DNA of 64,000 bases from a virus. Lineage: Duplodnaviria > Heunggongvirae > Uroviricota > Caudoviricetes. The notes below the pieces were generated by a model. It saw only the letters and a list, made by a program, of their open reading frames with translations. It ran no database searches and was not told where the DNA came from. The position numbers were made by a program, and so were the translations under genes. Where the stretch lies: IMG/VR virus record IMGVR_UViG_2609459792_000007; one strand, given 5' to 3'. Numbering within the stretch: position 1 is the first letter of the stretch; every line of letters begins with the position of its first letter. Positions 5,454-63,782 of the stretch are shown piece after piece.

Positions 5454-5546
5454 TGGTAGAAAAAAATATTTATATCGGTAAAAATAAGTAGGTACTTACT
5501 TAATGGTGGGCAAGGATAGCCCACCAAATCAAGGAGCATATTCAAC

Positions 5547-8500
5547 ATGTGGTACAGGGAAGGTACTATCACATTTACACAGGGTAGTAATACTCTGGTT
5601 GGGGTTGGGACAGCCTGGAACGTAACAGCTAATGGTGTGTTGCCGGGGATGATCGTCATTGGCCCCGACAATAAGCTGTATGAGATCAAGCGCGTAACAA
5701 GCGATACGAACATTGTTCTCTCAGAACCTTATACCGGTGAAACTCAGTCTGAAGTTCCGTGCCGAATCATTACTACCTATGAAGGCGACTTAACACAGTT
5801 TAGCGCGCGCTTTACCGCGCTAATGTCGCGTATGTCGGCTGATTCCAAGTCCATGCGTAGTTGGTTGACTGCTCTGGATGAGGTGACAATCGAGCGTGAA
5901 GACGGTACAGAAGTGACCGTTAAGCCGCTGATGCAGATCGTCAACGAGCACAACGAAAACGTTGAGTGGTATAAAAATAACACTGACGCGATTGATGCCG
6001 CTGGTGACAAAGCTCGTGAGGCGGCGGCCAGTGCTGCCGCAGCAGCAGAAAGCGCCAATACCGCTGGAGAAAAAGCATCTCAAGCGTCTCAAAGTGCATC
6101 CGCTGCGGCATCCTCACAAAGTGCCGCAAGTGCGAGTGCAACTGCTGCGAAAAAATCTGAAACGAACGCAGAATCAGCATATCTATCGGCAGCAGAATCA
6201 GCGTCTGTAGCGTCGACCAAAGCATCGGAGGCAGCAACATCTGCGTCCAGTGCCTCTGCATCTAAGGATGCAGCCAAAGCATCAGAGACTAACGCTTCAT
6301 CGAGTGCAAACGCGGCTGCATCATTTGCAACAGAAGCTGAAAATTCGTCTAAGGCAGCAAAAGCGTCAGAGACAAACGCAAAAGCATCTGAAACGGCAGC
6401 CGGGCAGAGTGCATCGTCTGCAAACAGTTCGAAATCTGCGGCAGAAGCGTCAGCAAGCGCAGCCTCAGCAAGTGCGGATAGTGCTTCATCAAGTGCAACT
6501 GCGGCAGGAAAATCTGCGGAAAGCGCGTCGTCATCAGCGACAACAGCTACCGCAAAAGCGACTGAGGCGACGAATCAGGCTACAGCTGCTAAAAATTCAG
6601 CATCGGCAGCAAAATCCTCTGAAACAAATGCAAAGGCTTCTGAAGATAATGCCGCTTCCTCTAAAGAGGCAGCTGCTGAATCTGCAAGTTCTGCGTCTGC
6701 ATCAGCCACCTCGGCATCTGCTTCAAAAGATGAGGCGACCAAGCAGGCATCAGCTGCGAAGGGGAGTGCTTCAACGGCATCCACGAAAGCAACAGAGGCG
6801 GCAGGTAGTGCGACGGCTGCATCTCAGAGCAAAGCTGCTGCTGAATCCGCTGCGACCCGTGCAGAAGCTGCCGCTGATCGTGCTGAAGAGATCGCCGGTG
6901 CAGTTGCGATGGAAGACGCAAGCCTTACCACCAAAGGTGTTGTGAAACTTAGCAGTGCTGTCGATAGCACCAGTGAATCGCTGGCCGCAACGCCAAAGGC
7001 AGTTAAAGCAGTCAATGACAATGCGAACAGCAGGGTGCCATCTAACCGAAAAATTAACGGGAAAGCACTGACTGCGGATATCACATTAACGCCGAAAGAT
7101 ATTGGTACTTTAAATTCAATAACGATGTCTTTCTCTGGCGGGGCCGGGTGGTTCAAACTGGCTACTGTTACAATGCCACAAGCGAGTTCCATCGTTTACA
7201 TCGCATTGATTGGTGGCGCTGGTTACAACGTCGGCTCCCCACATCAGGCAGGCATTTCAGAACTGGTTCTACGAGCAGGCAATGGAAACCCCAAAGGGAT
7301 TACAGGTGCTTTGTGGAAGCGTACAGCTGTCGGATTAACGAATTTCGCCTGGATCAACACATCCGGCGATACATATGATATTTACGTTGAAATTGGCAAT
7401 TATGCGACGAGTGTAAATATCCATTGGGATTGTACTGCAAATGCGTCAGTTTCTATTTATACATCGCCAACATATTCAGCGAGTAAGCCTTCCAGCGTTA
7501 CCGATGGTGTTGTTTATACGTTGTATAGCACACATCAGAAACCGACGCCGTTAGATATTGGAGCACTGCCAACAACCGGAGGAACAGTTTCAGGTCCGTT
7601 GTCTGTTACTGGTGGGATCACCGGAACATTAAATGGTAATGCAAGTACAGCAACGAAATTGCAGACGGCAAGATCTATCGGTGGAGTTGTTTTCGACGGT
7701 TCTGCAAATATTAACCTTCCAGGTGTAAACACTACGGGTAATCAGAACACCACTGGTAATGCTGCAACTGCTACAAAACTTCAGACGGCACGCACAATTG
7801 GCGGGGTAGCATTTGATGGCAGTGTCAATATCGACCTGCCGGGCGTGAATAAAGCAGGCAATCAGAGCACTACCGGCAATGCTGCAACCGCTACAAAACT
7901 ACAGACAGCGCGTACAATCAACGGTGTTAAGTTTGATGGTTCTGCGGACATAACGCTGACTCCTGCGAACCTTGACGTATACAGCAAAAGCGAAATAGAC
8001 AATAAAAAAGGGATGAGAAAATACACTTTTTCAGCGCCTGCAAATGCAGTAAGCGGTAAGTGGTATCCTATAGTCTTTCGCCGATCTGGAGGCAGTACCG
8101 ATGAATTAGCCTCACGAGTTGTGATAACTACTTATTCCTCAGCTGGCGGATACGCCATGAATAATTGTGAATTTAATGGGTTTGTTATGCCTGGCGGTTG
8201 GTCTGATCGCGGTTCATATGCGGCTGGTTTTTTCTCAATATATTCTACTGCTGAGCGAGCTATACACTCGATTATTTCAAGTGTGAAAGATGACGATTTG
8301 TGTAGTGTATTTTACGTTGAAGCCAGAGCATTCCCTATCAAGATATTTGCTGAGGAGGGCTTGAACGTAATTGTTCCAACGGCTGATTATGCAGTTGGTC
8401 AAACCACTTATAAGTGGGGGGCAACTGATCCTTTATCAGAAAGTACGAATGCACAGATAATTTTGGACTTTAAAAATGGACGAGGTTATTACTGTTCACA

Positions 8501-9704
8501 TCCATTTATTTCAAGTCTTTCAGGAAATGCTGCTACAGCAACGAAATTGCAGACTGCAAGAACTATCGGCGGCGTGGCCTTCGATGGATCTGCGAACATA
8601 AATTTGCCTGGTGTAAACACGGCAGGTAATCAGAATACAACGGGCAACGCGGCTACTGCTACGAAGTTGCAAACAGCGAGAAACATCAATGGTGTTAAGT
8701 TTGATGGCTCAGGCGATATCAACATTAATACATTGGTATCTCGTGGCCGAGTTACGGCGTTAAGCGGCTCTACTCAAGGCACTGCTGGCATTCAAATGTA
8801 CGAGGCGTACAACAATAGTTATCCGACCACGTATGGCAACGTATTGCACATGAAAGGTGCGAGTGCTGCTGGTGAGGGCGAGTTGCTTATTGGCTGGAGT
8901 GGTACGAGCGGTGCACATGCGCCGGTTTTCATTCGCTCCCGAAGAGATACCACTGATGCGGCATGGTCAGCGTGGGCGCAGGTATATACCGCTAAGGATT
9001 CAATCCCTGGTGTGAATACAACCGGTAATCAGAACACTACTGGTAATGCCGCAACCGCCACAAAATTGCAGACAGCAAGGAAAATTGCTGGTGTGGCGTT
9101 TGATGGCTCTGCCGATATTACTTTGACTGCGGCTAACCTTAATGCTTACACGAAAACAGAGGTAACAAACCTTCTAAGTTCCTATGCAAGCAGATCATCA
9201 CTGACAGGCTATAGTGGCAACCTGGATATTATTGCTGAAACACTGGTTGTCAAATCAGGCGGTAGTGGAGGGTTTGCTATATGGGATATTGGCACAACTA
9301 CTAGCGGTGCCAATATGTACATTGATCCAAACCCAGGTATCAATACAGTTTGGCGTTCAACATCTTCAAGGCGCTATAAAAAGGATATTGAAACATTACA
9401 AGATCGATATGCTGATGAACTTTTGTCATTAAGACCTGTTTGGTATCGTTCAATTTGTCGAGGTGACCGAAAGGATTGGGGGTATTACGGCCTTATTGCT
9501 GAAGAGGTTGGTGAGATTGCCCCGCAATATGTCCATTGGCGTGAACCAACAAATAATGATTCTCCAGAAGATATTTCCTCCAATGGTATGGTCGCTGAAG
9601 GAGTGATGTATGAACGTTTGGTTGTACCACTCATTCATCATATTCAGCAATTGACCAAAAGGGTTGAGGAGCTTGAAAAGAAGTTAAATTCACCTAAAGA
9701 ATAA
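5547..9704 (+). CDS. side tail fibre protein (Stf-like N-terminus, repeat shaft, C-terminal intramolecular chaperone-like domain)
   Basis: 1385 aa; Ala/Ser-rich region ending ..GSASTASTKATEAAGSA..SQSKAAAESAA..KGVVKLSSAVDSTSESLAATPKAVKAV resembles lambda Stf N-terminus as recalled; five or more copies of NAATATKLQTAR..GV.FDGS..I.LPGVNT.GNQNTTG; C-terminal about 130 aa resemble the self-cleaving chaperone domains of tailspikes and L-shaped fibres. Confidence 0.8.
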   Translation: MWYREGTITFTQGSNTLVGVGTAWNVTANGVLPGMIVIGPDNKLYEIKRVTSDTNIVLSEPYTGETQSEVPCRIITTYEGDLTQFSARFTALMSRMSADSKSMRSWLTALDEVTIEREDGTEVTVKPLMQIVNEHNENVEWYKNNTDAIDAAGDKAREAAASAAAAAESANTAGEKASQASQSASAAASSQSAASASATAAKKSETNAESAYLSAAESASVASTKASEAATSASSASASKDAAKASETNASSSANAAASFATEAENSSKAAKASETNAKASETAAGQSASSANSSKSAAEASASAASASADSASSSATAAGKSAESASSSATTATAKATEATNQATAAKNSASAAKSSETNAKASEDNAASSKEAAAESASSASASATSASASKDEATKQASAAKGSASTASTKATEAAGSATAASQSKAAAESAATRAEAAADRAEEIAGAVAMEDASLTTKGVVKLSSAVDSTSESLAATPKAVKAVNDNANSRVPSNRKINGKALTADITLTPKDIGTLNSITMSFSGGAGWFKLATVTMPQASSIVYIALIGGAGYNVGSPHQAGISELVLRAGNGNPKGITGALWKRTAVGLTNFAWINTSGDTYDIYVEIGNYATSVNIHWDCTANASVSIYTSPTYSASKPSSVTDGVVYTLYSTHQKPTPLDIGALPTTGGTVSGPLSVTGGITGTLNGNASTATKLQTARSIGGVVFDGSANINLPGVNTTGNQNTTGNAATATKLQTARTIGGVAFDGSVNIDLPGVNKAGNQSTTGNAATATKLQTARTINGVKFDGSADITLTPANLDVYSKSEIDNKKGMRKYTFSAPANAVSGKWYPIVFRRSGGSTDELASRVVITTYSSAGGYAMNNCEFNGFVMPGGWSDRGSYAAGFFSIYSTAERAIHSIISSVKDDDLCSVFYVEARAFPIKIFAEEGLNVIVPTADYAVGQTTYKWGATDPLSESTNAQIILDFKNGRGYYCSHPFISSLSGNAATATKLQTARTIGGVAFDGSANINLPGVNTAGNQNTTGNAATATKLQTARNINGVKFDGSGDININTLVSRGRVTALSGSTQGTAGIQMYEAYNNSYPTTYGNVLHMKGASAAGEGELLIGWSGTSGAHAPVFIRSRRDTTDAAWSAWAQVYTAKDSIPGVNTTGNQNTTGNAATATKLQTARKIAGVAFDGSADITLTAANLNAYTKTEVTNLLSSYASRSSLTGYSGNLDIIAETLVVKSGGSGGFAIWDIGTTTSGANMYIDPNPGINTVWRSTSSRRYKKDIETLQDRYADELLSLRPVWYRSICRGDRKDWGYYGLIAEEVGEIAPQYVHWREPTNNDSPEDISSNGMVAEGVMYERLVVPLIHHIQQLTKRVEELEKKLNSPKE

Positions 9705-9716
9705 ACAACTTCAATC

Positions 9717-9739
9717 GGGGCTGGAACTAAACCAGCCCC
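9717..9739 (+). terminator. hairpin downstream of tail fibre gene
   Basis: GGGGCTGG-AACTAAA-CCAGCCCC; weak U-tract follows. Confidence 0.4.
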
Positions 9740-9764
9740 TGCTTAAAAGTATAAGGATATATTT

Positions 9765-10019
9765 ATGAGCTATGGTGCACAGGTTTGGTCGCCATCAAGA
9801 CAGGAGATGGTCGATGCGTTGGCCCCTGTTTATTACCTCGATTATTTTACTCCCTCTGGTTCTGGAAGTAGAACATATGAGGTTGAGGCGGGATTGGGAA
9901 TCGACTATTACATAATGGACGTAACCAATGGGAAATACACAAGTCTTACGGTTTCTGGAAATACCATTTCATGGTCTGGAGCTAGTGGCAATTTAAACAT
10001 ATTGGTTTTTCAAAAATAA
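9765..10019 (+). CDS. hypothetical protein
   Basis: 84-aa ORF after the tail fibre gene; AT-rich; no motif recognised. Confidence 0.45.
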   Translation: MSYGAQVWSPSRQEMVDALAPVYYLDYFTPSGSGSRTYEVEAGLGIDYYIMDVTNGKYTSLTVSGNTISWSGASGNLNILVFQK

Positions 10020-10627
10020 TGTACGGAAGCAAGATATATCGATCTGACGGGAAGGTCTGGATGTCTCCTTCTTTGTCTCCTATCGTTTTTCAGAGAAAGC
10101 AGGTTGTTTCTTTGTCTGGCGGGACAGAGTTTAACACCCAAATATCTCCAGATCGTTCACCGATGATTTTTGTTGCCTATTCGAAAGCTGTTTCATTAAT
10201 AGCCAACAGAATAGTGCGTAACAACCAGGTGATTTACAGTTTCGGAGGTCAGGGTAGCGACTCTAGTGCCACGATATACGTATTTTCGAAAGGTATAGCC
10301 AAAAAAGAAACTTGGGGCATGAGTTTTTTCAATGCGCGAGGAGAGGAGATCTATAATACGGCAAATATCCCACTTTCATTTACCTTTCTTAATAATACGG
10401 AGTGGAACAGTTCTGGAGGGCATGTTTTTGATTACCCGCCAGCGATAATCCCAACATATGCAAATGTGTTCGCGGTTCCAGTACCGGGCGGGGCCATGAC
10501 AATGGTTTATGGATATGCGGCATATGGAAATACTGTTAGTTCCATATTCGTAAACCAACTTAATGGCGGCCATAGTTTTAGCGTAAATGGCAGAGTACCG
10601 GTAATAAATAGAAATCTGTATAACTGA
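10019..10627 (+). CDS. hypothetical protein
   Basis: 202-aa ORF, start overlaps previous stop; no motif recognised. Confidence 0.5.
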   Translation: MYGSKIYRSDGKVWMSPSLSPIVFQRKQVVSLSGGTEFNTQISPDRSPMIFVAYSKAVSLIANRIVRNNQVIYSFGGQGSDSSATIYVFSKGIAKKETWGMSFFNARGEEIYNTANIPLSFTFLNNTEWNSSGGHVFDYPPAIIPTYANVFAVPVPGGAMTMVYGYAAYGNTVSSIFVNQLNGGHSFSVNGRVPVINRNLYN

Positions 10628-10637
10628 TGAGTAAACG

Positions 10638-10868
10638 ATGAAAAGATTATTTCTAACAATAGCTGTTGTTCTCTCTCTTACTGGCTGTCAGAAATTGCCG
10701 ACACCCATATGTTATGGTGAGGCTATCATTGGTGGACAGGAGACAGTCATACCTATATATGCTGTTAAAAAGGTTAACGGCTATACCTTATACAAAGCGG
10801 GTAGCATCTATAACTGGCGATGGGTTGGAGTAGGTGCTTTCTCATCAGTGCGTTGCAATGCTGAATGA
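10638..10868 (+). CDS. small lipoprotein
   Basis: 76 aa; N-terminus MKRLFLTIAVVLSLTGCQ is a signal peptide with lipobox L-T-G-C. Confidence 0.55.
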   Translation: MKRLFLTIAVVLSLTGCQKLPTPICYGEAIIGGQETVIPIYAVKKVNGYTLYKAGSIYNWRWVGVGAFSSVRCNAE

Positions 10869-10937
10869 TAAGTAAGTACACACCTACAACAAAAGGGTGA
10901 AATGTGATATAAATCCGCCATCCCGATTTGACTTTTC

Positions 10938-11273
10938 ATGGAGGAAAACATGTCGAACGAGATGGCGGGCGTTACAACAGAGCAAGTTGAGCGTATTGCC
11001 GCGATCGTTGCTCGGGAGGTTGTTGGCAAATTAGGTAAAGAGCTACGTGAAGAAATTGGCCAGGAGGTCAATGATCAGCTGAAAACCTACTTTGGTGATA
11101 TGACCCCGGCGCAACATAGTATTCAACACTCCAATCTGGACAAACTCCTTAACCGGTTAGATTCCATCTCCAGTGGGTTCTTTGGCGGCATTGTTTCTAA
11201 AATAACGTCGTTCATTATTACCGCACTGCTTTTGGGGTTAGCCGCGTATGGCGTAAAAAATGGACTGCAATAA
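10938..11273 (+). CDS. hypothetical membrane protein (holin candidate by position)
   Basis: 111 aa with one C-terminal hydrophobic helix (ITSFIITALLLGLAAYGV); sits at the head of the putative lysis cassette. Confidence 0.4.
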   Translation: MEENMSNEMAGVTTEQVERIAAIVAREVVGKLGKELREEIGQEVNDQLKTYFGDMTPAQHSIQHSNLDKLLNRLDSISSGFFGGIVSKITSFIITALLLGLAAYGVKNGLQ

Positions 11274-11286
11274 CAGGAGATCAAGG

Positions 11287-11979
11287 ATGAAGACTCCGAG
11301 AGGCATTCGTAATAATAACCCCGGTAATCTTGATAAAGGATCACCGTGGCAAGGTCTGGTTGCGAATCCAGACGAACCGCGTTTTTGCACGTTTAAAGAC
11401 CCTGTTTGGGGGATTCGTGCGCTGGCGGTGACTCTAATTACCTACCACGACAAACGTCGCGCAAAAGACGGCTCAAGTATCGATACCATTCGTGAAGTTA
11501 TTGAACGTTGGGCACCGCCGAATGAAAACAACACTGACGCCTACATTAATGAGGTGTCTAAAGCCGTTGGTGTAACCGCAGACATGATCATCGATCTGCA
11601 TGATTACGACATCCTTCGACCTTTGGTTGAGGCAATCATTCGCCACGAGAATGGCCGGGGTCCGCTAAAAACGCTGAACACCTGGTATGCGGCAGAAGTT
11701 ATTGAGGAAGGTCTGCGTCGAGCTGGCGTTGTTAAGCCGGTGAAAACCGTGAAGGCTGTTCCTGTAACTAAAGAAACAGCAGGCGCAACTGTTACAGCAG
11801 GTATTGGTCTGGCGCAACTGGCCGATGTTATGCCGCAGGTTTCCGCTGCTATGGATAAGGCACAAGGCCATATCTCTAGCGGGGATACAGTACGCATCAT
11901 CTTCGGTATTGCCACTATTGTTGTGGCCGGATTCATTGCCTGGTCGCAGGTAAGAAAACACCAGAAAGGGATGGTCTAA
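11287..11979 (+). CDS. hypothetical protein, endolysin candidate by position only
   Basis: ORF-track start is 11260; ATG at 11287 (MKTPRGIRNNNPGN..) has an AGGAG RBS and avoids overlap. C-terminal hydrophobic helix. Lies between holin-like gene and Rz/Rz1-like pair; catalytic family not recognised. Confidence 0.4.
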   Translation: MKTPRGIRNNNPGNLDKGSPWQGLVANPDEPRFCTFKDPVWGIRALAVTLITYHDKRRAKDGSSIDTIREVIERWAPPNENNTDAYINEVSKAVGVTADMIIDLHDYDILRPLVEAIIRHENGRGPLKTLNTWYAAEVIEEGLRRAGVVKPVKTVKAVPVTKETAGATVTAGIGLAQLADVMPQVSAAMDKAQGHISSGDTVRIIFGIATIVVAGFIAWSQVRKHQKGMV

Positions 11980-11980
11980 T

Positions 11981-12232
11981 ATGCTAGGCAGCCTGATGAC
12001 AAAGCTAAAAGTTGCTTTGATTACGCTGGCTGCCGTTCTTTTCGTTCTGGTCGGCGCTTACACGATGGGCGGGAATGCAGCACGACGAGCAATGGAAGAG
12101 AAGGCAAAACAGGAAGACAGAAAACGACTTCAAAGCACAGTGGACGTCAAAAATGAAACACTTGATGAGTTACGGCGCAAGGATGCTTCTTCTGTTCATC
12201 ATGAGTTGCACAATAAGTGGTTGCGTGATTAA
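11981..12232 (+). CDS. Rz-like i-spanin (short)
   Basis: 83 aa; N-terminal TM helix (LKVALITLAAVLFVLVGAY) then charged helical region; overlaps an out-of-frame lipoprotein ORF. Confidence 0.45.
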   Translation: MLGSLMTKLKVALITLAAVLFVLVGAYTMGGNAARRAMEEKAKQEDRKRLQSTVDVKNETLDELRRKDASSVHHELHNKWLRD

Positions 12233-12383
12233 GCCTCAACCCGCTGGTGTGCTTTTCTGCGATGCGGCTACACCGCTATACATCAGCCGTGATGATCTCA
12301 TGACCGAAGAGACTGAAAGAGAGGTGCTTTTTCACAATATGATAGGGGAGCGATTGTGTGGATGGGGCAGAAAAGTACCATAA
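12153..12383 (+). CDS. Rz1-like o-spanin lipoprotein
   Basis: Internal Met of the 12075..12383 ORF gives MKHLMSYGARMLLLFIMSCTISGC (signal peptide plus lipobox I-S-G-C); starts inside and extends beyond the Rz-like gene in another frame. Confidence 0.5.
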   Translation: MKHLMSYGARMLLLFIMSCTISGCVIKPQPAGVLFCDAATPLYISRDDLMTEETEREVLFHNMIGERLCGWGRKVP

Positions 12384-12560
12384 CAGAAGAGGAGTTTTCT
12401 AACATAAAATTTGCATATTATTAGAGCACAAGGTAGATTTGGCACATGGATGTCAAGTAAATCATCCCTTGCATTAATGCTGCGACGCATACTCGTAGCC
12501 TCTAAACCCTGACAAGGGTCGCCGCTATGACATTAAGTTAATACCGGCTAAGGTGGACAC

Positions 12561-12944
12561 ATGCTGAACGAAAAACGTTCTATACAAACAATTCGCGATT
12601 GCACGAGTGTTATCGCAACTCATGTGCTGAATAAGCGCAAACTTGAGGTGCGTAAACTTAACAACGATGCGACTGCGCCAAAAGACACTCGCTTCATCGT
12701 AACTTTCAAAGACGATGTTGAGAATGCTGGTGCCAGTGTAAAACCGTTGGCTGAAGCGATTTTCCTGAACGATCGTGTTCGTTTCATTGTGAAGCCAGCA
12801 AAACAATACCCTGAATTAGCACGGTTTAGTGACCAATTCTCTGAAATTATTGAGAGTGCAATTCGCCGCTTTCTTAATACTCATGGTAGCATTGTCAGCA
12901 ATACAACTGCTGATGGTACTGCTCTAAGATGGCACCTACACTAG
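12561..12944 (+). CDS. hypothetical protein
   Basis: 127-aa ORF; no motif recognised. Confidence 0.45.
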   Translation: MLNEKRSIQTIRDCTSVIATHVLNKRKLEVRKLNNDATAPKDTRFIVTFKDDVENAGASVKPLAEAIFLNDRVRFIVKPAKQYPELARFSDQFSEIIESAIRRFLNTHGSIVSNTTADGTALRWHLH

Positions 12945-13681: not shown

Positions 13682-13686
13682 CAATT

Positions 13687-14885: not shown

Positions 14886-14890
14886 AAATC

Positions 14891-14921: not shown

Positions 14922-14937
14922 AACTACAGTGTCAGCT

Positions 14938-55495: not shown

Positions 55496-55572
55496 ACCGA
55501 TACAAAGCATTATGTGGCCTGGCAACGCTGGGCCACAATGGATCACAAGAATTAAGAAGGAACAAAACTAGC

Positions 55573-56442: not shown

Positions 56443-56510
56443 TTGTAGGTAGTTATCTATCTGTGTATATTGCGTTGGCGCGTTAAATTTCTGAAACAAC
56501 TATTCGTTTT

Positions 56511-56537
56511 TGGTGGCCTATGGCCACCATTTTTTTA
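56511..56537 (+). terminator. rho-independent terminator
   Basis: TGGTGGCC-TAT-GGCCACCA followed by TTTTTTTA. Confidence 0.75.
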
Positions 56538-56613
56538 TCTGTCTGGTCTTGTTCTCTCAATAAATGTAAACTCACGCAATGAATAAGTGGTTACTTATCT
56601 TTGTGAGGTTTTT

Positions 56614-57717
56614 GTGTCACTCCTTTTGAATCGTGAGCATACGAACGGTCAGGTAACAAACGCATCGTATGCAAAAGTTATTGAGACGGTGCTTAAAAGC
56701 GGCGTGCAGGCTGATGATCGCACAGGCACTGGTACTTTAAGCACCTGCTACGTTCCCTCTTACTACATGCTTACTGGTGGGACTGTGCCGCTTATTTCTG
56801 GAAAGGCGGTAAATCTTAAGCCACTGCTTGTCGAACTTGAGTGGTATCTGAAAGGCACGGGCAACATCCAATTTCTCAAGGATAACGGCGTTAAGATTTG
56901 GGATGCATGGGCCGATGAGAATGGCGATTTGGGGCCGGTTTACGGTAAGCAGTGGCGTCGATGGGAAGATACCCGCATCGTGAGCCATAGTGAATATCTG
57001 AGCAAGATCGATACTTTCCGTGAACGCGGGTACAAAGTCGAGGGATACCTGGGTATCAGTGAAGATCGCGTAGTGCTGTCCCGTGAAATCGATCAGCTAC
57101 AGCGTATTGTCGATACACTGCGCACGAACCCTACCGATCGTCGCATCATGCTTAACGCATGGAACGTAGGCGAGCTTGAGGATATGAAACTGCCACCTTG
57201 CCACTTTGTCTTCTCTTTGTGGAGTCGTGAGCTTGATTTTGAAACCCGTTTAACGATGGCAACTGACATTGGTCTTCAACACAGTCGCCTCGGTTATGAG
57301 TCTATCTACACCAAGATGCTATACGATCTGGAGATGGACGGCAGTGTTACTGAAACTGAACTGGATGAACTTGGAATCCCCAAACGCATCCTCAACTCCT
57401 GCCTCGTACAGCGTAGCGTAGACACTTTTGTTGGTATGCCATTCAATATTGCTGGCTATGGCATTCTCACTCATTTTCTCGCGAAGATTACGGGTCACAT
57501 GGCCGGTGCATTTGTGCATTTTGGCTTTGACGTGCATTTATACAATAACCACATGGAAAGTGTGTGTGAGCTAATGAAACGACAGGCTCCAGAGCATTCA
57601 GATCCGGTCGTTATTTTCCCTCATGAATGGTCTGAGCTGGATGATTTCAAATGGGACGATATTCTGATTCTTGGCTATGACCCTCTACCGTGGATCAAGG
57701 TTCCAGTGGCGGTGTGA
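56614..57717 (+). CDS. thyA: thymidylate synthase (ThyA family, with insertions)
   Basis: DRTGTGT, GDLGPVYGKQWRRW, catalytic LPPCH, RSVDTFVGMPFNIAGY. Start moved to GTG 56614 (RBS GAGG) because the ORF-track start 56587 lies inside the intergenic motif. Pyrimidine hydroxymethylase not excluded. Confidence 0.8.
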   Translation: MSLLLNREHTNGQVTNASYAKVIETVLKSGVQADDRTGTGTLSTCYVPSYYMLTGGTVPLISGKAVNLKPLLVELEWYLKGTGNIQFLKDNGVKIWDAWADENGDLGPVYGKQWRRWEDTRIVSHSEYLSKIDTFRERGYKVEGYLGISEDRVVLSREIDQLQRIVDTLRTNPTDRRIMLNAWNVGELEDMKLPPCHFVFSLWSRELDFETRLTMATDIGLQHSRLGYESIYTKMLYDLEMDGSVTETELDELGIPKRILNSCLVQRSVDTFVGMPFNIAGYGILTHFLAKITGHMAGAFVHFGFDVHLYNNHMESVCELMKRQAPEHSDPVVIFPHEWSELDDFKWDDILILGYDPLPWIKVPVAV

Positions 57718-57730
57718 TATGGCAAGAGGT

Positions 57731-58132
57731 ATGTATGTCTTATGCGAAATTGAAGGTGTGCTGGCAAATACAAGCCATCGTAAATCTGTATCTGACGCGG
57801 ATGCAGGCCAGCTCATTGCCGGTGATGAACTCATTTTCCCCACCAGCCGTATGTTGCGTGGTTTTGCTCGCTCAGGGGCTGAAGTGGTGCTTATCAGTAG
57901 CCGCTCTGAAACTCTTGAAGCGCCAACTAAACGATGGCTGAAAGATTTTGGCGTTGATTATGACTGGCTTCATCTCGTACCGAATGGCACCAGTTATGAG
58001 AAGCATATTAAGCGCACATTAGCGGAGCATAAAGGCGATCTGCTTATCGCTGCGCTGGTGCACGATCCTCGACTCCGTGCCGCTTTAGCCGACTCTCACC
58101 ATCGACCGGTCATCTATGAGGTGAGCAAATGA
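57731..58132 (+). CDS. hypothetical protein
   Basis: Start chosen at ATG 57731 (RBS AAGAGG) within the 57671..58132 ORF; no confident motif. Confidence 0.4.
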   Translation: MYVLCEIEGVLANTSHRKSVSDADAGQLIAGDELIFPTSRMLRGFARSGAEVVLISSRSETLEAPTKRWLKDFGVDYDWLHLVPNGTSYEKHIKRTLAEHKGDLLIAALVHDPRLRAALADSHHRPVIYEVSK

Positions 58133-58605
58133 AGATGATCGCTGCTGTTGGCCGTAACTATGAGATCGGCATAGCGAATGAACTCCCCTGGCGTTGTTCT
58201 ACCGATCTGAAGCTATTTAAGAGACTCACCAAAAACGCCACTGTCGTTATGGGGCGTAAAACGATGGAAAGTCTCAAACGCCCTCTTCCAGAGCGTCATA
58301 ACCTCGTTTTGACGCGCTCTCATGGCTTTGTACCAAATGGATTCTACCCTGCTGGTGTGGATGATGTGTTGCGATTACCAGAGCCTGTGTGGGTGATTGG
58401 CGGGGAACAAATTTACTCGCTATTCATGCCGCATGTTGAAGAGATTTGGCTCTCCCACATCGGCGTTGATGTGCCAAACGCTGATGCATTCTTCCCGGCA
58501 AGCATGATGCGTAACTTAGGCTTTGTGCCTGTTGAAACAGCTTATACCCAACGAGCCAGCGAGGAAGAGCCTGGCTTTTCGCAGATCGTATACAGAAGGT
58601 CGTAA
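58129..58605 (+). CDS. folA: dihydrofolate reductase
   Basis: 158 aa; MIAAVGRNYEIG..LPW..DLKLFKRLT..VVMGRKT..SL.RPLPERHN and VIGGEQIY parallel E. coli FolA as recalled. Confidence 0.85.
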   Translation: MKMIAAVGRNYEIGIANELPWRCSTDLKLFKRLTKNATVVMGRKTMESLKRPLPERHNLVLTRSHGFVPNGFYPAGVDDVLRLPEPVWVIGGEQIYSLFMPHVEEIWLSHIGVDVPNADAFFPASMMRNLGFVPVETAYTQRASEEEPGFSQIVYRRS

Positions 58606-59249
58606 TGGATTACCGGATTGGGATCACTGGTGCTCAGGGCAGTGGGAAAACAACCCTGGCTAAATATATCGACAAACATTACGGAATCCCTTACGTGGAT
58701 GCTGGTGTCGGAAGTTTGATGAGCCGCCTCGGTGTTCGAGTAGGTGAGTCTATGACTCTATATGAGCGGCTTCAGATTCAAATGGAAATAGCAAAGCATA
58801 TAGAGCTACTTACGCGTGGTGTTGAAGGCTTTGTTATCGATCGCACACCTGCTGATGTTATGGCCTACACGTTGGATTTGGTCGGCCATACCAATGAAGA
58901 TCGGTGTATTGAGTTAGCCCTCGATATCGAAAAGTTTTGCCACAAAACTGCTATTTCAAACTTTAACGCCATTGCTGGCTTACGCCCGGGAGTCGCTCTC
59001 TCCGAGCGAGATTACTTGCGTTCACAACGAGCATCATTAGACCGTCTGTATGTCGCTCGTATTGATGCGTTGATGTGCGGGGAACTGACAAAAATTCACC
59101 TACATCCGCAAAGGGGAGATCTGCAAACCTTCGTCGTTTCCAACCGATATCGCACAGTTGAAGCAAGAGCCAGATCAGTAATGAGAATGCTAGATAACGC
59201 AGTAGAAAAGATAGAAAACCGCTTCTGTGGCCGAGTGACCGTTCATTAG
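58605..59249 (+). CDS. P-loop NTPase, putative (deoxy)nucleotide kinase
   Basis: 214 aa; Walker A GITGAQGSGKTT at the N-terminus; located in the nucleotide-metabolism cluster. Confidence 0.5.
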   Translation: MDYRIGITGAQGSGKTTLAKYIDKHYGIPYVDAGVGSLMSRLGVRVGESMTLYERLQIQMEIAKHIELLTRGVEGFVIDRTPADVMAYTLDLVGHTNEDRCIELALDIEKFCHKTAISNFNAIAGLRPGVALSERDYLRSQRASLDRLYVARIDALMCGELTKIHLHPQRGDLQTFVVSNRYRTVEARARSVMRMLDNAVEKIENRFCGRVTVH

Positions 59250-59310
59250 AAATTGTTCGCCTCTTCGACATTGCAACAATAAAACTCTCAAAATGGGTTA
59301 AGGATAAAAA

Positions 59311-59730
59311 ATGTTTAGTGAAATGTTGCTTGAAGATGAACTGGATCGGAAAACAACAGAGGCTTTGATTCGTGTAGCGGACGAACATTCCCGGTCGCTT
59401 ATGACCGATCGAGAGGCTCGTCTGGCTATTCGTGCCATATTCGAAACTGCGCAGGGGCTTGTTGGCGCACAAGTAGGTGAAGCCATTAACATCGCCATGT
59501 CTCAGTTCAGTGAAGACAGTAAAAAGCCTCTGTTTCCTATGCATTTGATGCTGGCTGGTGGCACGGTGCTTTATATCTCTGTTTGTCTGGATAGCAACCA
59601 AATCAATATTCTCAACACTGCGTCAGGTAAGTGGAAAGATCCGATTGTCTGTGAAACCAGTGAAGAAACTTTGAAAAAAGCGGCTCAATTTGTACGTAGC
59701 GCACTACTTAAGGGCGCTAAGAAGTTGTAA
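59311..59730 (+). CDS. hypothetical protein
   Basis: 139-aa ORF; no motif recognised. Confidence 0.45.
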   Translation: MFSEMLLEDELDRKTTEALIRVADEHSRSLMTDREARLAIRAIFETAQGLVGAQVGEAINIAMSQFSEDSKKPLFPMHLMLAGGTVLYISVCLDSNQINILNTASGKWKDPIVCETSEETLKKAAQFVRSALLKGAKKL

Positions 59731-59739
59731 GGAGTTCTG

Positions 59740-60297
59740 ATGACAACGATTGTTGCAGGCATCGATATCGAGTCTACGGGACTGGATTTCCTTGCTGGTC
59801 ATAAAATTATTGAAATCGCAATTACCCGCTATGAACTGGAGACACAGAGACATATTGATAGTCTGGAGATGCGTTTTAACCCTCGCAGAAACATAGATCC
59901 GAAAGCTCAAGCCGTTCATGGCATTTCATTGGAACAGCTCGCAGCTGAACCTTTGTTGTCAAATCATGCCAGCGAAATTGGCGCTTATATGGGGGCATGT
60001 AGTGCGTGGATTGCTCATAACGGTGAAGCGTTTGATATACCATTTATTCGACACGAGTTTTCAGGGTATGGAGTAAGACTGCCAGATGTTCCTGTTATAG
60101 ATACTATGTTATCGGGATTGTGGGCCACAGAAGACGGTAAACGTCCCCGCCTTGAAGAGTTGGCCTTCTCTCTTGGCTTTATATACGATCATGCCAAAGC
60201 ACATAGCGCCTTATATGACACAAACTTAATGATGCAATGCTTCTTTAAGGCACGTAATAAGTACGGATTTTTTAAATTACCCTCTGAAATTGTGTAA
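59740..60297 (+). CDS. DnaQ-like 3'-5' exonuclease (DEDDh)
   Basis: 185 aa; Exo I GIDIESTGL, Exo II AHNGEAFDIPFI, C-terminal H..YD. Confidence 0.7.
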   Translation: MTTIVAGIDIESTGLDFLAGHKIIEIAITRYELETQRHIDSLEMRFNPRRNIDPKAQAVHGISLEQLAAEPLLSNHASEIGAYMGACSAWIAHNGEAFDIPFIRHEFSGYGVRLPDVPVIDTMLSGLWATEDGKRPRLEELAFSLGFIYDHAKAHSALYDTNLMMQCFFKARNKYGFFKLPSEIV

Positions 60298-60303
60298 AGC
60301 AAA

Positions 60304-60341
60304 AGCCTACTTTAAAGAGAGTTTAAAGTAGGCTTTCTTTT
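60304..60341 (+). terminator. rho-independent terminator
   Basis: AGCCTACTTTAAA-loop-TTTAAAGTAGGCT followed by TTCTTTT. Confidence 0.7.
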
Positions 60342-60457
60342 AAAGAACAGTCGCCTTTCAATCATTTCCTGCCTGTATTTAATACTTTTCCGCCTGATAG
60401 GTTTAGTCAAAATGTAGCCATCGAAACGCAAATGTAACCAAACAGAAGGAGACTTAC

Positions 60458-61267
60458 ATGAGTTCGGTTGAAAATGTAATGACAAATGATGATCTGGACG
60501 AACTGACAGCTATGTTGCAATCACTTGATGAACCGGTAAAAAAAGCTGCACAGGTTGAGAATACTGATGATATTGACGATCTGCTTCTAGGCCTCGATGC
60601 TGGCGTAGCCATGAGTTCTGATGATGTTGCCGAAGAACTGTTCAATGAAGAAAAAGCAGGTGATTTCAGCTCCGCTTTAAATGAGTTGGAGTTAGCGCAT
60701 GAGCCTATAAACGTAATTAACACTGAAAGTGGTGAAGCTGCCGAAAACGAGCCAGAACAATTGGGATTTATTGAGGTTGAAGATTGTGTTGAGGTTAATG
60801 ATGAATTAAAAGTTCAACAGTCAAATGATAGCAATACAAATAAAAAAGCTCGTACTGCAAGAGGTCCTCGTTTTACTTTAAGTGATAAAGATGATTCGTT
60901 TTTCAATAAAGCAGGCTTAGAAAAAGATATTTTCTTAGACGCTTACGAAAACGCGCCTGTCAAAGCAAAGGATAAGATATTAAACCTTCTTAATTGGTTT
61001 AGCGGAGGTCCAGATATTAGTGTTTACACGGTAATTTCCATGAGACACCTTCTCACAGAAAAGAAGGCTACAAGTAATAGTATTAAGATTGCTTTAATGA
61101 GCAATCCAGAAAAACCGTATCCGCTTAACACTGCGTCAACTCAGGCTGGGCAAATGATGGCTGTATTTCCAGCTACAGGAATTGCTGTTAGAGACGGTGG
61201 AAATCTAACATTGAACGAAGAATCACCGATCGTTAAGAAGTTTGTCGCGGAGTACACTATTGGATGA
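60458..61267 (+). CDS. hypothetical acidic protein
   Basis: 269 aa; highly acidic N-terminal half. Confidence 0.5.
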   Translation: MSSVENVMTNDDLDELTAMLQSLDEPVKKAAQVENTDDIDDLLLGLDAGVAMSSDDVAEELFNEEKAGDFSSALNELELAHEPINVINTESGEAAENEPEQLGFIEVEDCVEVNDELKVQQSNDSNTNKKARTARGPRFTLSDKDDSFFNKAGLEKDIFLDAYENAPVKAKDKILNLLNWFSGGPDISVYTVISMRHLLTEKKATSNSIKIALMSNPEKPYPLNTASTQAGQMMAVFPATGIAVRDGGNLTLNEESPIVKKFVAEYTIG

Positions 61268-61343
61268 CGTTCCCCTACTGAAAATAAAGCCCATAGAGAG
61301 CTTTATAGTGCTGGGTAAGCTAACCCATACCCAGCACCACAAA

Positions 61344-61389
61344 AACGCGTCAGAGAGCTTCTCGTTTGCATTTCTGGCGCGTTTTATTT
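61344..61389 (+). terminator. terminator-like hairpin
   Basis: AACGCGTCAGA..TCTGGCGCGTT (one mismatch) followed by TTATTTG. Confidence 0.5.
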
Positions 61390-61449
61390 GATTGCCAGAC
61401 ATAAAATCAAATGCAAAAATAGGTATTTACTTACCTATCGAGAAAGAAG

Positions 61450-62043
61450 ATGATTGCAGCCGAAAAAATCAAACAGCGAAAGCGCGACAACTCTCTTCGT
61501 GACCTCTGGAGAACACCTGATTGGCTGTTTTCTGCCATTCAACGTTATCTTGGAGTGACATTTGATGTTGACGTTGCCTGCAACAAGGACAATGCAAAGC
61601 TGCCTAATTTCATAGGCGTTGAGCGTGATGCTTTGAAATCTGAATGGGGACAGCCAGGTACAATTGCCTTCCTCAATCCACCCTACTCCAAAATCTCCCC
61701 CTGGATTGATGCGGCTATACGTGAGCAGGCTCGCGGAGTTACAACAGTGATGCTAATTCCTCAATCCCTAGATACAAAGTGGTATGAGCGTGCAACAGAG
61801 TGTGCGAATGAGACGATTATTCTGTCTGGTGGCCGCGTAGCGTTTGTCGAGCCTGACGTCAATCTGGGTCAGGTAGAAGTAAACATCAACCCAGGTGGCA
61901 GTATGCTCGTTGTTTTTCGAGGATTCTGTCAGGACGCTGGGCACTCTATAAGCAAGATCCCTTTGGACGTCATGAAAAGTCTGGGAGGGTATGATCCTGC
62001 GAATGTGATCAGGAAAAAAAGACCATCAAAGAAGGCTGCTTAG
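61450..62043 (+). CDS. dam: DNA N6-adenine methyltransferase (phage Dam-type)
   Basis: 197 aa; catalytic motif FLNPPYS; size and motif fit the small phage N6-adenine methyltransferase family; target specificity not determinable. Confidence 0.7.
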   Translation: MIAAEKIKQRKRDNSLRDLWRTPDWLFSAIQRYLGVTFDVDVACNKDNAKLPNFIGVERDALKSEWGQPGTIAFLNPPYSKISPWIDAAIREQARGVTTVMLIPQSLDTKWYERATECANETIILSGGRVAFVEPDVNLGQVEVNINPGGSMLVVFRGFCQDAGHSISKIPLDVMKSLGGYDPANVIRKKRPSKKAA

Positions 62044-62064
62044 TTTGTTCTGGCGTCTGTAATT

Positions 62065-62123
62065 AGCCTGCTTCTGTATATATAAATAACTACATATTAA
62101 TTATTAATATACGGAAGCAGGCT
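62065..62123. repeat. long AT-looped hairpin element, copy B
   Basis: AGCCTGCTTCTGTATATAT..ATATACGGAAGCAGGCT; shares flanking TTCTGGCGTCT with copy A at 15817-15871; followed by GTTTTGT. Confidence 0.7.
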
Positions 62124-62204
62124 GTTTTGTATCAGAGACTCCAGACCTGAACATCACTACAGAATCCACTAGAACCCCTTCCCAGACGCTTTAAAATCGA
62201 TTTT

Positions 62205-62459
62205 ATGAATCACTTTAAGGAAACTAACATGTCATACCCGACTAATGTCGTTGCGCTCGTAGAGAGCGATTTTCTGGCCCAGGCCCGTGAAATGATGAAA
62301 GATCGCGAGCAGGCTTTCAACTTGTACGAATGGGCAATTAAGTGCTTGCATCTTGGGGAGCATCGCGAACTTGTTGAACAGCTTTTAGGTGAGTTGATCA
62401 ACGAGGTGTTTGCCTTGAATGTTCAACTACATGGTCGAGAAAATAATCAATCGAAATGA
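62205..62459 (+). CDS. hypothetical protein
   Basis: 84-aa ORF; no motif recognised. Confidence 0.45.
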   Translation: MNHFKETNMSYPTNVVALVESDFLAQAREMMKDREQAFNLYEWAIKCLHLGEHRELVEQLLGELINEVFALNVQLHGRENNQSK

Positions 62460-63043
62460 TAGATAAGTACAAACTATTCATAAAGTGAATTGTAAGTGCT
62501 AAGATCTGATAGTTTCCAGTCGTAGACTGGAGACTCGACCTGATGGGTGGGGGTAAGCGTCACTGGCGTCAGGTTTAAAAAAGCTCACTACCAGCGTAGA
62601 ACCGGTGCCGTTTAGGTGTCGGGGAAGGGGGAACCAAAGTGAGCGGAGACAAGGGTCACTTTATGATTGTCGAGTCTGGGGTGTTTCGAGAGGTTGAATC
62701 CAGTACTCCCCTTCATAAAGTGTGGGAAGATCTCGGTTCTGGGGTGCTGTCATCCATAACTTCCCAAGTCTAAGCTGGCAGTAGACTTAGGCCATAACTT
62801 TTCAGGTTATGAAACGACCAGGTTGGTGAGGGATTTTTATACTCACCTCCCTGGGAGAGTATTACCTGAAAAGACAACCTCTCACTTCGTTCGAGGTGAA
62901 CTTCACTCACTTCGTTCGTTCAGTTCAGGTTTATAAAAACCTGTTCTGGGAAGTAATTTGTTTATTTTAATAATTATTAACACGCACGCGTGTGCGCACG
63001 CGCGAGGAAAAAAATCGGCGCGGCGCTTGATTCAGGAGTTTAT

Positions 63044-63634
63044 ATGACGACGAAGACACCAGCCCGATCGCAAGAAAAAACTCGCAAAAAAGCCAAAAAC
63101 AAAACTTCTCCCCGCACCAATTCCACAACGCCTGTCGTAGAGTTCAATCCCCAGCTTAAAACCGTGAAAATCTTCAGTGATGGCTCTTGCCTTAAAAATC
63201 CGGGTGGCCCGGGCGGTTACGGTATAGTTCTCCAGTATCGTGGTGAGGAACGCGAGTTCTCAGATGGTTTTCATAGCACCACCAATAACCGCATGGAGAT
63301 GATGGGGGCACTTATCGGGCTGGAGCGTTTGAAATATCCATGCAACGTTATTTTGCACTCTGATAGCCAGTATCTGAAAAACGGCATGACACTGTGGATG
63401 AAATGGTGGAAACGCAATGGATGGATGACTTCTGACAAAAAACCGGTAAAGAATGTTGATCTGTGGAAGCGTCTGGATGAGGCCGCAAGTCGACATAATG
63501 TTCGCTGGAAGTGGGTTAAAGGCCACGCCGGGCATCGTGAAAATGAAATATGTGATCGACTCGCGAAGATCGCAGCTTTTTCCGCAGCAGATATGCCTCA
63601 CAAGAAAGATATTGGTTTTGTTTATAACAAATAG
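63044..63634 (+). CDS. rnhA: ribonuclease HI
   Basis: [69 protein letters not shown] parallels E. coli RnhA as recalled; start placed at ATG 63044 (RBS CAGGAG) rather than ORF-track 62990, which lies in a GC palindrome. Confidence 0.85.
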
Positions 63635-63782
63635 TAAGTAAGTCTTTACCTATCATTTTAAATCATGTATCTTATCGGCGTCAGGATGACAATGTGTCGG
63701 TAAGACACAGTTCCAGGATGGAACGAGAAAGGCGGCTGGCAATCGCCAGCCGCAACTCTTTCTGACACTGGATGGAGTCCAC

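Follow-up and report, generated by a model that had tools for sequence, protein, structure and literature searches.

What does a short palindrome that recurs between the genes of a plasmid-borne prophage control, and which protein reads it? The question is raised by a 64,000-nucleotide stretch of viral DNA (IMG/VR record IMGVR_UViG_2609459792_000007; called the window here, meaning that stretch at its full length), which is part of an SSU5-like phage-plasmid of Escherichia coli. The 64-kb window is 98% identical to plasmid p4_0.2 (NZ_CP023851.1), 96% identical to phage Cyrano of strain LF82, and 80% identical to Salmonella phage SSU5. Its genes lie nearly all on the + strand, running from the tail tip and tail fibre through lysis, partition, replication, recombination and nucleotide metabolism to dam and RNase H. 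A first-pass annotation of this DNA had reported a palindrome at ∼18 intergenic sites upstream of start codons and had read it either as a phage-specific promoter class or as the operator regulon of one DNA-binding protein, possibly a helix-turn-helix protein encoded at 26362–26748. We find that the palindrome, referred to below as the class-1 site, is real and far above chance, and that through it one phage protein most likely switches all lytic genes off or on together.

The palindrome is enriched in intergenic DNA

A gene model was built for the window, and motif discovery by expectation maximization (EM) was confined to the 45 intergenic segments (9.3 kb, 14% of the window), as the first-pass annotation had proposed. 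Every good seed converged on ATAAATAAGTA(C/A)TTACTTAT, the top intergenic motif and the same palindrome, and the EM-derived matrix matched ∼19 loci in the window, nearly all of them intergenic; the recurrence originally put at ∼18 intergenic sites was thus borne out. The motif frame is a single 20-mer, ATAR-GTAAG-YR-CTTAC-YTAT, with GTAAG-nn-CTTAC as its conserved core. Sites were scored as matches out of 20 to ATARGTAAGYRCTTACYTAT. Sixteen reached at least 16/20, all of them intergenic, and at 15/20 or better there were 20 intergenic and two coding sites. At 14/20 or better, 25 intergenic sites were found, compared with a mean of 3.2 and a maximum of 9 in 200 composition-matched simulations. 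A similar frequency of the motif within genes, which was to count against a regulatory function, was not observed: coding sequence contained 11 sites at this threshold versus 9.5 expected, and so no excess. The core GTAAGNNCTTAC with at most one mismatch occurred eight times against an expectation of 1.34, and none of 100 shuffles reached eight. The motif was not revealed by maximal-order Markov k-mer enrichment over the whole window, and most hits of an exact-pattern scan of viral contigs were isolated matches expected by chance.

Some particulars of the original description required revision. Its 22-mer consensus was essentially right, but the exact 22-mer is rare (two matches at ≤3 mismatches, none expected). 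The placement upstream of start codons holds only loosely, as the distance from site to next start codon ranges from 0 to ∼200 nt and a number of sites reach into the stop codon of the preceding gene; about one third of the window sites lie ≤19 nt from the next start codon. Among the 19 positions listed, 15 are good (5484, 10867, 15953, 19391, 20266, 22909, 26782, 29434, 35009, 38543, 47180, 51866, 56581, 61421 and 63635), 26782 being counted on its perfect 12-bp core only. Three are weak (43043, refined to 43055, 15/20; 56451, refined to 56441, 14/20; and 62461, 15/20), and 34551 is only a half-site and is not counted. Site 43382–43401 (17/20), which overlaps a start codon, was absent from that list. 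An apparent division into two spacing classes, with the inverted heptamers ATA[AG]GTA and TAC[CT]TAT 2 or 6 bp apart, was discarded as an artefact of a 4-bp TA periodicity. The single 20-mer frame was adopted because the Klebsiella and Acinetobacter consensus sequences described below fix it.

The core is shared by distant relatives

Six genomes were compared: the E. coli window element, Cyrano, SSU5, the Klebsiella plasmid pJN2-26, a distant Acinetobacter baumannii phage-plasmid (NZ_CP143347.1; proteins 25–60% identical) and an Aeromonas plasmid. The motif was found in all six and is conserved across five related lineages as distant as Acinetobacter and Aeromonas. Cyrano, SSU5 and the Klebsiella relative each carry 25–31 sites at orthologous positions, and whole-genome scans of Cyrano and SSU5 gave ∼26 sites in each, likewise orthologous in position. 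Structural-module sites in these two phages, located outside the window, follow terL, lie in the 3' end of the portal gene and follow the major capsid gene; further sites precede the major tail, tail fibre and holin genes. Klebsiella pJN2-26 has perfect 20-mers, ATAGGTAAGTACTTACCTAT. The top intergenic motif of the Acinetobacter plasmid is TATTA-GTAAGCGCTTAC-TAATA (∼31 sites, 25 bits), and the Aeromonas plasmid carries TCA-GTAARYRYTTAC-TGA, i.e., TCA-GTAA(G/A)YRYTTAC-TGA. Since both share the core, the invariant part of the motif is the 12-bp core GTAAGnnCTTAC, and the flanks vary by clade.

The site has the strand symmetry of a DNA target

Dyad mismatches on the coding strand comprised 53 G·T and 63 A·C pairs, with no excess of G·T, and of 72 folded sites, 33 gave the more stable structure on the + strand and 37 on the − strand. 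The stems of the class-1 sites are weak (−2 to −8 kcal/mol) and lack a U-tract. The conserved feature of the motif is the sequence itself, beyond mere pairing, and an Rfam scan matched no family to the motif, returning only tRNAs. Because of this strand symmetry the class-1 site is, on the sequence evidence, best described as a double-stranded DNA site for a symmetric dimer and not as an RNA hairpin.

The site overlaps predicted promoters at variable register

Between 24 and 64 kb, six of the 15 plus-strand promoter predictions touch a class-1 site. Five window sites overlap a plus-strand prediction scoring at least 9/12 (38533, 35013, 43365/43377, 51863 and 61392), and most sites are without a −35 hexamer. 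The site fills the spacer of the predicted promoters at 38533 (TTGAAA-17-TATCAT, 10/12), 35013 and 51863, and at 61392, upstream of dam, it lies over the predicted transcription start (TTGCCA-17-AAAAAT, 61392–61420, with an upstream TG). A further case is the gene for a 128-aa XRE-type helix-turn-helix (HTH) protein, where the perfect core begins 2 nt downstream of the predicted −10 hexamer, over the predicted transcription start; the arrangement TTTACA-16-TAATAT, 2 nt, core is identical in E. coli and Klebsiella pJN2-26 though the flanks have diverged. A lenient sigma-70 scan of four genomes gave 34 plus-strand versus 18 minus-strand predictions. These predictions place the class-1 site over sigma-70-like promoter cores at variable register, either in the spacer or at the transcription start, and such variability suits an operator acting in repression better than an activator site. 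As the putative operator sits inside predicted promoters, the two original readings merge: what stands of them is a dyad-symmetric, putative protein-binding site tied to the transcription of lytic genes.

Hexamers resembling −10 elements lie 0–1 nt from the core (TATCAT or TATCTT here, TATAAT in Acinetobacter). On visual inspection of the Acinetobacter and Aeromonas sites a directional −10 hexamer beside the core seemed convincing, but a paired test did not bear it out (40 vs 35 sites, p = 0.64), and a search for a conserved flanking −35 or −10 found no information beyond ∼26 bp around the motif. With the −10-like flank equal on both sides, the motif cannot be called a directional promoter in itself. 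Matches to the sigma-70 consensus are depleted relative to dinucleotide shuffles (14 vs 28.5 in 1–20000, 23 vs 32.4 in 24001–44000 and 20 vs 32.1 in 44001–64000), which suggests that spurious promoters of the host type are selected against.

Genes behind the motif are largely off in the lysogen and can be induced

A study of strain LF82 (PMC9928086) provides RNA-seq values gene by gene for Cyrano under five conditions; these values are read-depth-limited. In LB, the HTH gene (CYRAN_45) stood at 96 against a background of 9.8, and genes behind motif sites were at background except for CYRAN_34. This gene, the only leaky motif-linked gene in the lysogen, sits behind site 19390, which has three core mismatches. 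CYRAN_56, which lies behind the near-consensus promoter at 38533, was at the detection floor in LB. Over junctions between adjacent co-directional genes, the mean log2 change was −0.3 in LB, −1.05 in B6 and −0.64 in MB1 where a motif was present, as opposed to +0.14 to +0.46 at motif-free junctions; the junction at site 47182 is among those across which the transcript drops. In MB6 (6-h macrophage sample), step-ups occurred at the motif junctions of CYRAN_56 (+3.6 log2), CYRAN_60 (+3.65, located at the site 43382 junction), CYRAN_12 (+2.5) and CYRAN_34 (+2.4). Motif-linked genes are silent in the lysogen, with this one exception, and several of them rise under stress.

A proposed repressor regulon and the candidate binding protein

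The general claim that the palindrome is a regulatory DNA site is well supported by its strand symmetry, its intergenic restriction, its conservation in five lineages, its overlap with predicted promoters and the silent but inducible state of the genes behind it; that a protein binds the site, which protein does so and that the effect is repressive are what we infer. The palindrome would be the operator of a phage-encoded dimeric DNA-binding protein, lying within or beside the core promoters of ∼19 lytic transcription units in the window and 25–31 per genome, with DNA metabolism, recombination, tail fibre, lysis and tRNA genes among the units covered. That protein would most likely be the prophage repressor, the 128-aa XRE-type HTH protein encoded at 26362–26748. 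On binding, the repressor would cover either the −10 region or the transcription start at every promoter and would block read-through between operons, keeping the plasmid-prophage silent, and through the perfect core at its own transcription start it would limit its own synthesis. A repressor operator regulon with the HTH protein as binder is favoured because a near-consensus promoter containing the site is silent, the leaky gene lies behind a degenerate site, the register to the promoter is variable and the core lies at the HTH transcription start. It is also the only conserved candidate expressed in the lysogen. For the motif being a genome-wide operator regulon of the prophage repressor, probably this HTH protein, we consider the chances about even.

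Homologues of the HTH protein were found in four of the six genomes (the E. coli, Klebsiella and Acinetobacter relatives) and in ∼790 plasmids, including those of Yersinia and Salmonella; ∼800 plasmids in PLSDB carry the CobS-like gene of the family at ≥60% identity (E. coli, Klebsiella, Salmonella, Enterobacter and Yersinia). By these counts the HTH protein is close to universal in plasmids of the family, a point in its favour as binder. The protein is 57% identical to its Klebsiella and 38% identical to its Acinetobacter counterpart, compared with 78% for the Klebsiella CobS-like protein and 84% for the winged-helix protein considered below. No peptidase or obvious sensor domain was found in it, and Pfam and PHROG scans of the small window proteins were uninformative except for this one.

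Several observations weigh against a repressor of this kind. Most sites are without a recognisable −35, and there is no directional −10/−35 signal beyond the palindrome, so that promoter activity at most sites can only be presumed. An HTH homologue was not detectable in SSU5 or in the Aeromonas plasmid, both of which keep 16–26 good sites. Moreover, residues of the HTH protein that probably contact bases have changed and the site has not; as a rule, an immunity repressor diverges together with its operators. Some of the transcript drops across motif junctions in the lysogen coincide with intrinsic terminators, and the HTH transcript is not lowered in the condition where motif-linked genes rise. 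With respect to the first of the two genomes without the HTH gene, SSU5 (42525–42761) lacks the entire module of integrase, HTH gene and 70-aa open reading frame (ORF) between the tRNA region and cobT (window counterpart 25264–27212), which is consistent with SSU5 being a virulent deletion derivative of the plasmid-prophage. Such a derivation of SSU5, together with the Aeromonas element being a co-integrate, may account for the missing HTH genes, both being assumptions made for that purpose.

Alternative readings of the palindrome

A different, though unlikely, explanation is that the sites form an activator-dependent class of middle or late promoters like the Lpa late promoters of phage P1, at which an activator on the dyad beside a −10-like hexamer recruits host RNA polymerase. 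The best activator candidate is an 88-aa winged-helix (wHTH) protein (PHROG 900, CYRAN_123) whose gene is located outside the window, immediately upstream of terS. Unlike the repressor gene, the wHTH gene is present in six of six genomes, including the two without the HTH repressor; between enteric relatives the protein shares 84–89% identity, and its recognition helix opens with the conserved T(K/R)Q(A/S)I. The gene stands before terS as lpa does before pacA in P1, where 11 late promoters have an inverted repeat bound by Lpa (PMC10695390). The absence of a −35 from most sites also agrees with an activator, as do the Acinetobacter sites, in which the core is followed within 0–1 nt by TATAAT or TAATAT, and the invariance of the site across genera, which is a property of promoter motifs. 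In addition, a second motif class with canonical sigma-70 promoters (see below) dominates the accessory, early-type region, and class 1 dominates the structural, lysis and DNA-metabolism modules. On the other hand, the register to the predicted −10/−35 hexamers varies and the −10-like flank is equal on both sides. At the third of sites that lie close to a start codon, a transcript starting downstream of the site would leave out the Shine-Dalgarno sequence. The silence of the near-consensus promoter containing a site points to active repression, and the leaky gene is the one behind the most degenerate core. Transcripts of the wHTH gene were at background in the lysogen and did not track the activity of motif-linked genes (5.6 in B6 with these genes off; 4.8 in MB1 with them partly on), and no Lpa homologue was found in the window, Cyrano, SSU5, Klebsiella or Aeromonas. 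Activation is kept under consideration because the motif persists without the HTH gene and is invariant across genera, and because the wHTH gene precedes terS. In a more specific version, which we consider doubtful, the palindrome would be an element of an unrecognised middle/late promoter class served by host RNA polymerase and the PHROG 900 protein, and GATAAT-N13-AGAAAACAAnTTGTTT would represent the repressor-controlled early sigma-70 promoters. It is equally improbable that, within such a promoter class, the wHTH protein is a functional analogue of P1 Lpa without detectable similarity, conserved together with the site from Enterobacteriaceae to Acinetobacter and Aeromonas. Searches of PDB sequences returned nothing significant for either the HTH or the wHTH protein.

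Much less probable is a function at the level of DNA apart from promoter control, either as a centromere-like or silencing site for ParB_N proteins or as a replication, recombination or compaction site tolerated between genes. Two ParB_N proteins are encoded in all six genomes, outside the window, and a copy of the motif lies upstream of their operon in every lineage; a dispersed symmetric palindrome whose sequence is conserved across genera resembles chromosomal parS, and its distance to start codons is variable. However, the ParB-like genes (CYRAN_119 and CYRAN_120) were at background in the plasmid state, that is in the lysogen, where partition or silencing is needed, and a separate ParA locus is present in the window at 13858–14885. 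The proteins are short (∼222 aa), with only a ParB_N domain detected. The overlap with promoter cores, at six of 15 plus-strand predictions, is far above chance, and steps in expression occur exactly at the sites.

Least credible of all, and rejected on strand symmetry and weak energy, is an RNA hairpin in polycistronic transcripts serving as a processing site, terminator or translational repressor target: every site can form an A-U-rich stem of 6–11 bp (with z-scores as low as −5.6 in some cases), a start or stop codon is touched by several sites and enteric relatives encode a member of the FljA family of RNA-binding translational repressors (FljA itself represses phase-1 flagellin, acting post-transcriptionally), but the mismatches and folding energies lack strand asymmetry, the stems are weak, without a U-tract or an Rfam match, the sequence is kept and not pairing alone, and the Acinetobacter and Aeromonas relatives keep the motif without having the FljA-like gene.

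Two other proteins were considered as binders of the class-1 site and set aside. The FljA-family regulator (Pfam Flag1_repress, E = 1e-80; Cyrano CYRAN_114, 780–1301, and SSU5_121, 46897–47343, both outside the window) occurs only in the enteric relatives. A divergent sigma-70-family protein is encoded between the CobS-like and DnaE genes of the Acinetobacter plasmid (NZ_CP143347.1, 22792–23457; only Sigma70_r2, weak, E = 0.003), but no counterpart of such a phage sigma factor is detectable in the E. coli element.

Individual sites and their surroundings

The coordinates of the class-1 sites in the window, together with the HTH gene and its predicted promoter, are collected in Table 1.

Table 1. 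Class-1 sites of the window and the candidate repressor locus. Scores are matches out of 20 to the consensus given in the text.
Feature	Sequence	Coordinates	Strand	Score	Context
Class-1 site	ATAAGTAGGTACTTACTTAA	5484–5503	.	18/20	Between tail-tip gene and tail-fibre gene (start 5547)
Class-1 site	ATAAGTAAGTACACACCTAC	10868–10887	.	17/20	Abuts cor stop codon (10866–10868), upstream of holin/lysis cassette
Class-1 site	ATAAGTAAGTAACTACCTAC	15956–15975	.	17/20	12 nt before start 15988, first gene of helicase/primase operon
Class-1 site	ATAAGTAGATGATTACTTAT	19390–19409	.	17/20	Three core mismatches; upstream of 260-aa gene at 19451 (CYRAN_34)
Class-1 site	ATAGGTAAGTACAAGATTAT	20268–20287	.	16/20	Terminator tail before it; upstream of gene preceding DNA ligase
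Class-1 site	ATAAGTATTTACTTACTTAT	22913–22932	.	18/20	Upstream of tRNA cluster
128-aa XRE-type HTH protein gene		26362–26748	-		Adjoins integrase gene; candidate repressor and binder
Class-1 site, perfect 12-bp core	GTAAGTGCTTAC (core, 26781–26792)	26777–26796	.		32 nt upstream of HTH gene start codon
HTH gene sigma-70 promoter, predicted	TTTACA, 16 nt, TAATAT	26795–26822	-		Promoter scan
Class-1 site	ATAAGTAACTACTTACCATA	29437–29456	.	16/20	Upstream of CobS-like AAA ATPase gene
Class-1 site	ATAAGTAAGTACTGATCTAT	35019–35038	.	18/20	Upstream of gene for gp32-like single-stranded DNA-binding protein; inside predicted promoter TAGATA-17-TATCAT
Class-1 site	ATATATAAGTACTTACTTAT	38539–38558	.	18/20	Exactly fills 17-bp spacer of predicted promoter TTGAAA-17-TATCAT (38533–38561)
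Weak class-1 site	ATAAGTAAACACTAACCACA	43055–43074	.	15/20	
Class-1 site	ATAAGTTAGTATCTACCTAT	43382–43401	.	17/20	Right flank TATCATG holds start codon of 59-aa gene at 43403
Class-1 site	ATAGGTATATACTTACTTAT	47182–47201	.	18/20	Upstream of sbcD-like gene
Class-1 site	ATAGGTAAGTGCTTATCTAT	51866–51885	.	19/20	Upstream of nrdA; inside predicted promoter TTGATA-17-TAACAT
Weak class-1 site	AATTGTAGGTAGTTATCTAT	56441–56460	.	14/20	At stop codon of MazG-like gene
Class-1 site	ATGAATAAGTGGTTACTTAT	56579–56598	.	17/20	Just upstream of thymidylate synthase gene
Class-1 site	ATAGGTATTTACTTACCTAT	61419–61438	.	18/20	11 nt before dam start codon
Weak class-1 site	ATAGATAAGTACAAACTATT	62459–62478	.	15/20	At stop codon
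Class-1 site	GTAAGTAAGTCTTTACCTAT	63634–63653	.	17/20	At stop codon of RNase H-like gene

Orthologues were located for the sites at 5484 (Cyrano 22448, SSU5 21937), 10868 (Cyrano 26657) and 15956 (Cyrano, SSU5 and Klebsiella), and the sites at 29437 and 35019 have orthologous positions in Acinetobacter at 21422 and 29671, respectively. A Shine-Dalgarno sequence stands immediately 3' of site 15956–15975. The tRNA cluster 3' of site 22913 consists of three genes identified by Rfam at 23682–23925, where the annotations of close relatives give tRNAs for Asn, Tyr or Ser, and Thr. Near the site at the HTH gene, more GTAAG/CTTAC half-sites are found at 26852, 26901 and 26966.

Terminator-like structures accompany a number of the sites. 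Several class-1 sites are followed within 5–8 nt by a GC-rich hairpin, often with a T-run (51892–51913 and 5505–5527 in the window, Cyrano 5470–5500 and Acinetobacter 38412–38445), and behind the major capsid gene enteric and Acinetobacter relatives alike keep this order of site and then terminator. The hairpin after site 51866–51885 is the one at 51892–51913, and that after site 5484–5503 has the form GGTGGGC...GCCCACC. Site 38539–38558 is instead preceded by a terminator, at 38503–38523.

Of all Cyrano genes, CYRAN_46 shows the strongest induction over the LF82 conditions, rising from 4.3 to 10.8 log2; in the window it is the 70-aa ORF that adjoins the HTH gene on its right (27000–27212). 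The transcript falls by ∼5 log2 units between CYRAN_46 and cobT, which suggests a terminator at ∼27215–27260.

A second motif class and a 55-bp inverted repeat

A second intergenic motif, class 2, has the sequence AGAAAACAAnTTGTTT with the dyad AAACAAnTTGTTT and occurs on the + strand only, at window positions 13807–13822, 16737–16752, 27276–27291, 39689–39704 and 54306–54321. A −10-like GATAAT, TATTAT or TACATT lies ∼13 nt upstream, often with a −35-like hexamer (SSU5 TTGGAC-16-GATAAT), and a Shine-Dalgarno sequence and ATG follow 15–35 nt after the motif. In this layout class 2 resembles a canonical sigma-70 promoter that carries an operator or 5'-untranslated-region element at approximately +4 to +19. 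There are 17–19 copies each in Cyrano, SSU5 and Klebsiella and none in the Acinetobacter relative. The motif occupies gaps without class 1, before parA, helicase, cobT, nrdB, terS and many small accessory genes, and several class-2 junctions are constitutive step-ups in the lysogen. The FljA-family protein could be the class-2 binder.

An inverted repeat of ∼55 bp, CCTGCTTCTGTATATATAAATAA...ATATACGGAAGCAGG, is present in two window copies, at 15818–15870 and 62068–62120. The AT-rich loop of the first contains a class-1-like dyad with a 3-nt centre (ATAAGTAACTTAT; AAGTnACTT, the pattern of the P1 Lpa box) and TATAAATA; the second has TATAAATA and no such dyad. In relatives the repeat occurs three times (Cyrano 31171, 78095 and 108353), once shortly before the terS region. 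It may serve as a terminator, as an origin-like element or as a special promoter.

Significance

Searches of the literature for the motif string and for gene regulation in SSU5-like elements found no description in the searchable literature. By analogy with the systems discussed below, the site may be an undescribed member of the general kind of genome-wide prophage operator regulon, with the same middling confidence that we place in repression as its function. SSU5-like phage-plasmids are very common, and phage-plasmids as a class often carry antibiotic resistance genes (PMC9600943). With almost all lytic transcription units marked by one 20-bp site, the family provides an experimental handle, requiring one oligonucleotide and two candidate proteins, and the site offers a means of annotating operons in hundreds of plasmids. 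It is also a test case for a multi-site operator that is unchanged while its presumed repressor diverges. If the palindrome is indeed a repressor operator, it should be possible to induce the whole family by titrating or inactivating a single small protein.

Comparison with known systems

Dispersed palindromes are known from plasmids. The KorB operators (OB) of the IncP plasmid RK2 are a dozen or more palindromes distributed over the plasmid at variable distances from promoters. A scattered palindrome and encoded proteins of the ParB family are features shared with KorB and parS systems, but the ParB-like genes here are not expressed in the plasmid state, and the sequence is unrelated to parS or OB.

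Operators of lambdoid CI/Cro-type repressors (XRE; P22 c2, 434) resemble the class-1 sites in being palindromes placed over −10/−35 elements or transcription starts, in being bound by a small HTH dimer (here a candidate) and in autoregulation. The P22 half-site, moreover, contains TAAG. Lambdoid phages have few operators, at two or three promoters, whereas 19 sites are present here in 64 kb and ∼26 per genome, and no obvious sensor domain was found.

In phage P1, Lpa binds a 9-bp inverted repeat at each of 11 late promoters (PMC10695390), two examples being AAGTTACTT and ATGTGACTT. In both systems a short inverted repeat recurs at many lytic operons, usually without a −35, although the −10-like hexamers beside the class-1 core are found equally on both sides; the P1 half-site AAGT/ACTT resembles TAAG/CTTA of the class-1 core, and both P1 and the present family have a small regulator gene immediately upstream of the terminase genes. 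The dyad here is 12–20 bp with a 2-nt centre as against 9 bp with a 1-nt centre, its register to the −10 is not fixed, and DNA-metabolism genes are covered too. A tblastn search with P1 Lpa gave best E values of 0.7 (window, Cyrano and SSU5), 2.6 (Klebsiella) and 0.55 (Aeromonas), the Acinetobacter plasmid not being searched.

The C1 network of P1 likewise belongs to a plasmid-prophage and uses one repressor site dispersed over many promoters, including that of the repressor gene itself. C1 operators are asymmetric and are not known to control any but early functions. In the element described here the sites stand before early-type and late (structural and lysis) genes alike. Olpa and Oc1a-e are among the operators annotated in the P1 record; the P1 operators are annotated as 17 bp, compared with a 20-bp palindrome here, and C1 has ∼283 aa, compared with a candidate repressor of 128 aa, of XRE type.

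In Cluster A mycobacteriophages (L5 gp71, Bxb1), stoperators number 20–30 per genome and are located mostly outside classical promoters, in the short gaps of co-directional operons; at least one site is at the early promoter and the repressor gene, and the prophage is silent except for the repressor and maintenance loci (PMC6550527). Transcript levels in the lysogen tend to drop across the sites here too, but several of these junctions also carry intrinsic terminators. Stoperators are 13–14 bp, have no dyad symmetry, are bound non-cooperatively, are oriented with transcription and co-diverge with their repressors into heteroimmune groups (PMC6550527). The class-1 site differs in being palindromic and unoriented, with no strand or flank asymmetry, and in being unchanged from E. 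coli to Klebsiella, with its core kept in Acinetobacter and Aeromonas. Taken together, these comparisons suggest that among known kinds the class-1 sites come closest to the dispersed C1 operators of P1 and to the Cluster A stoperators.

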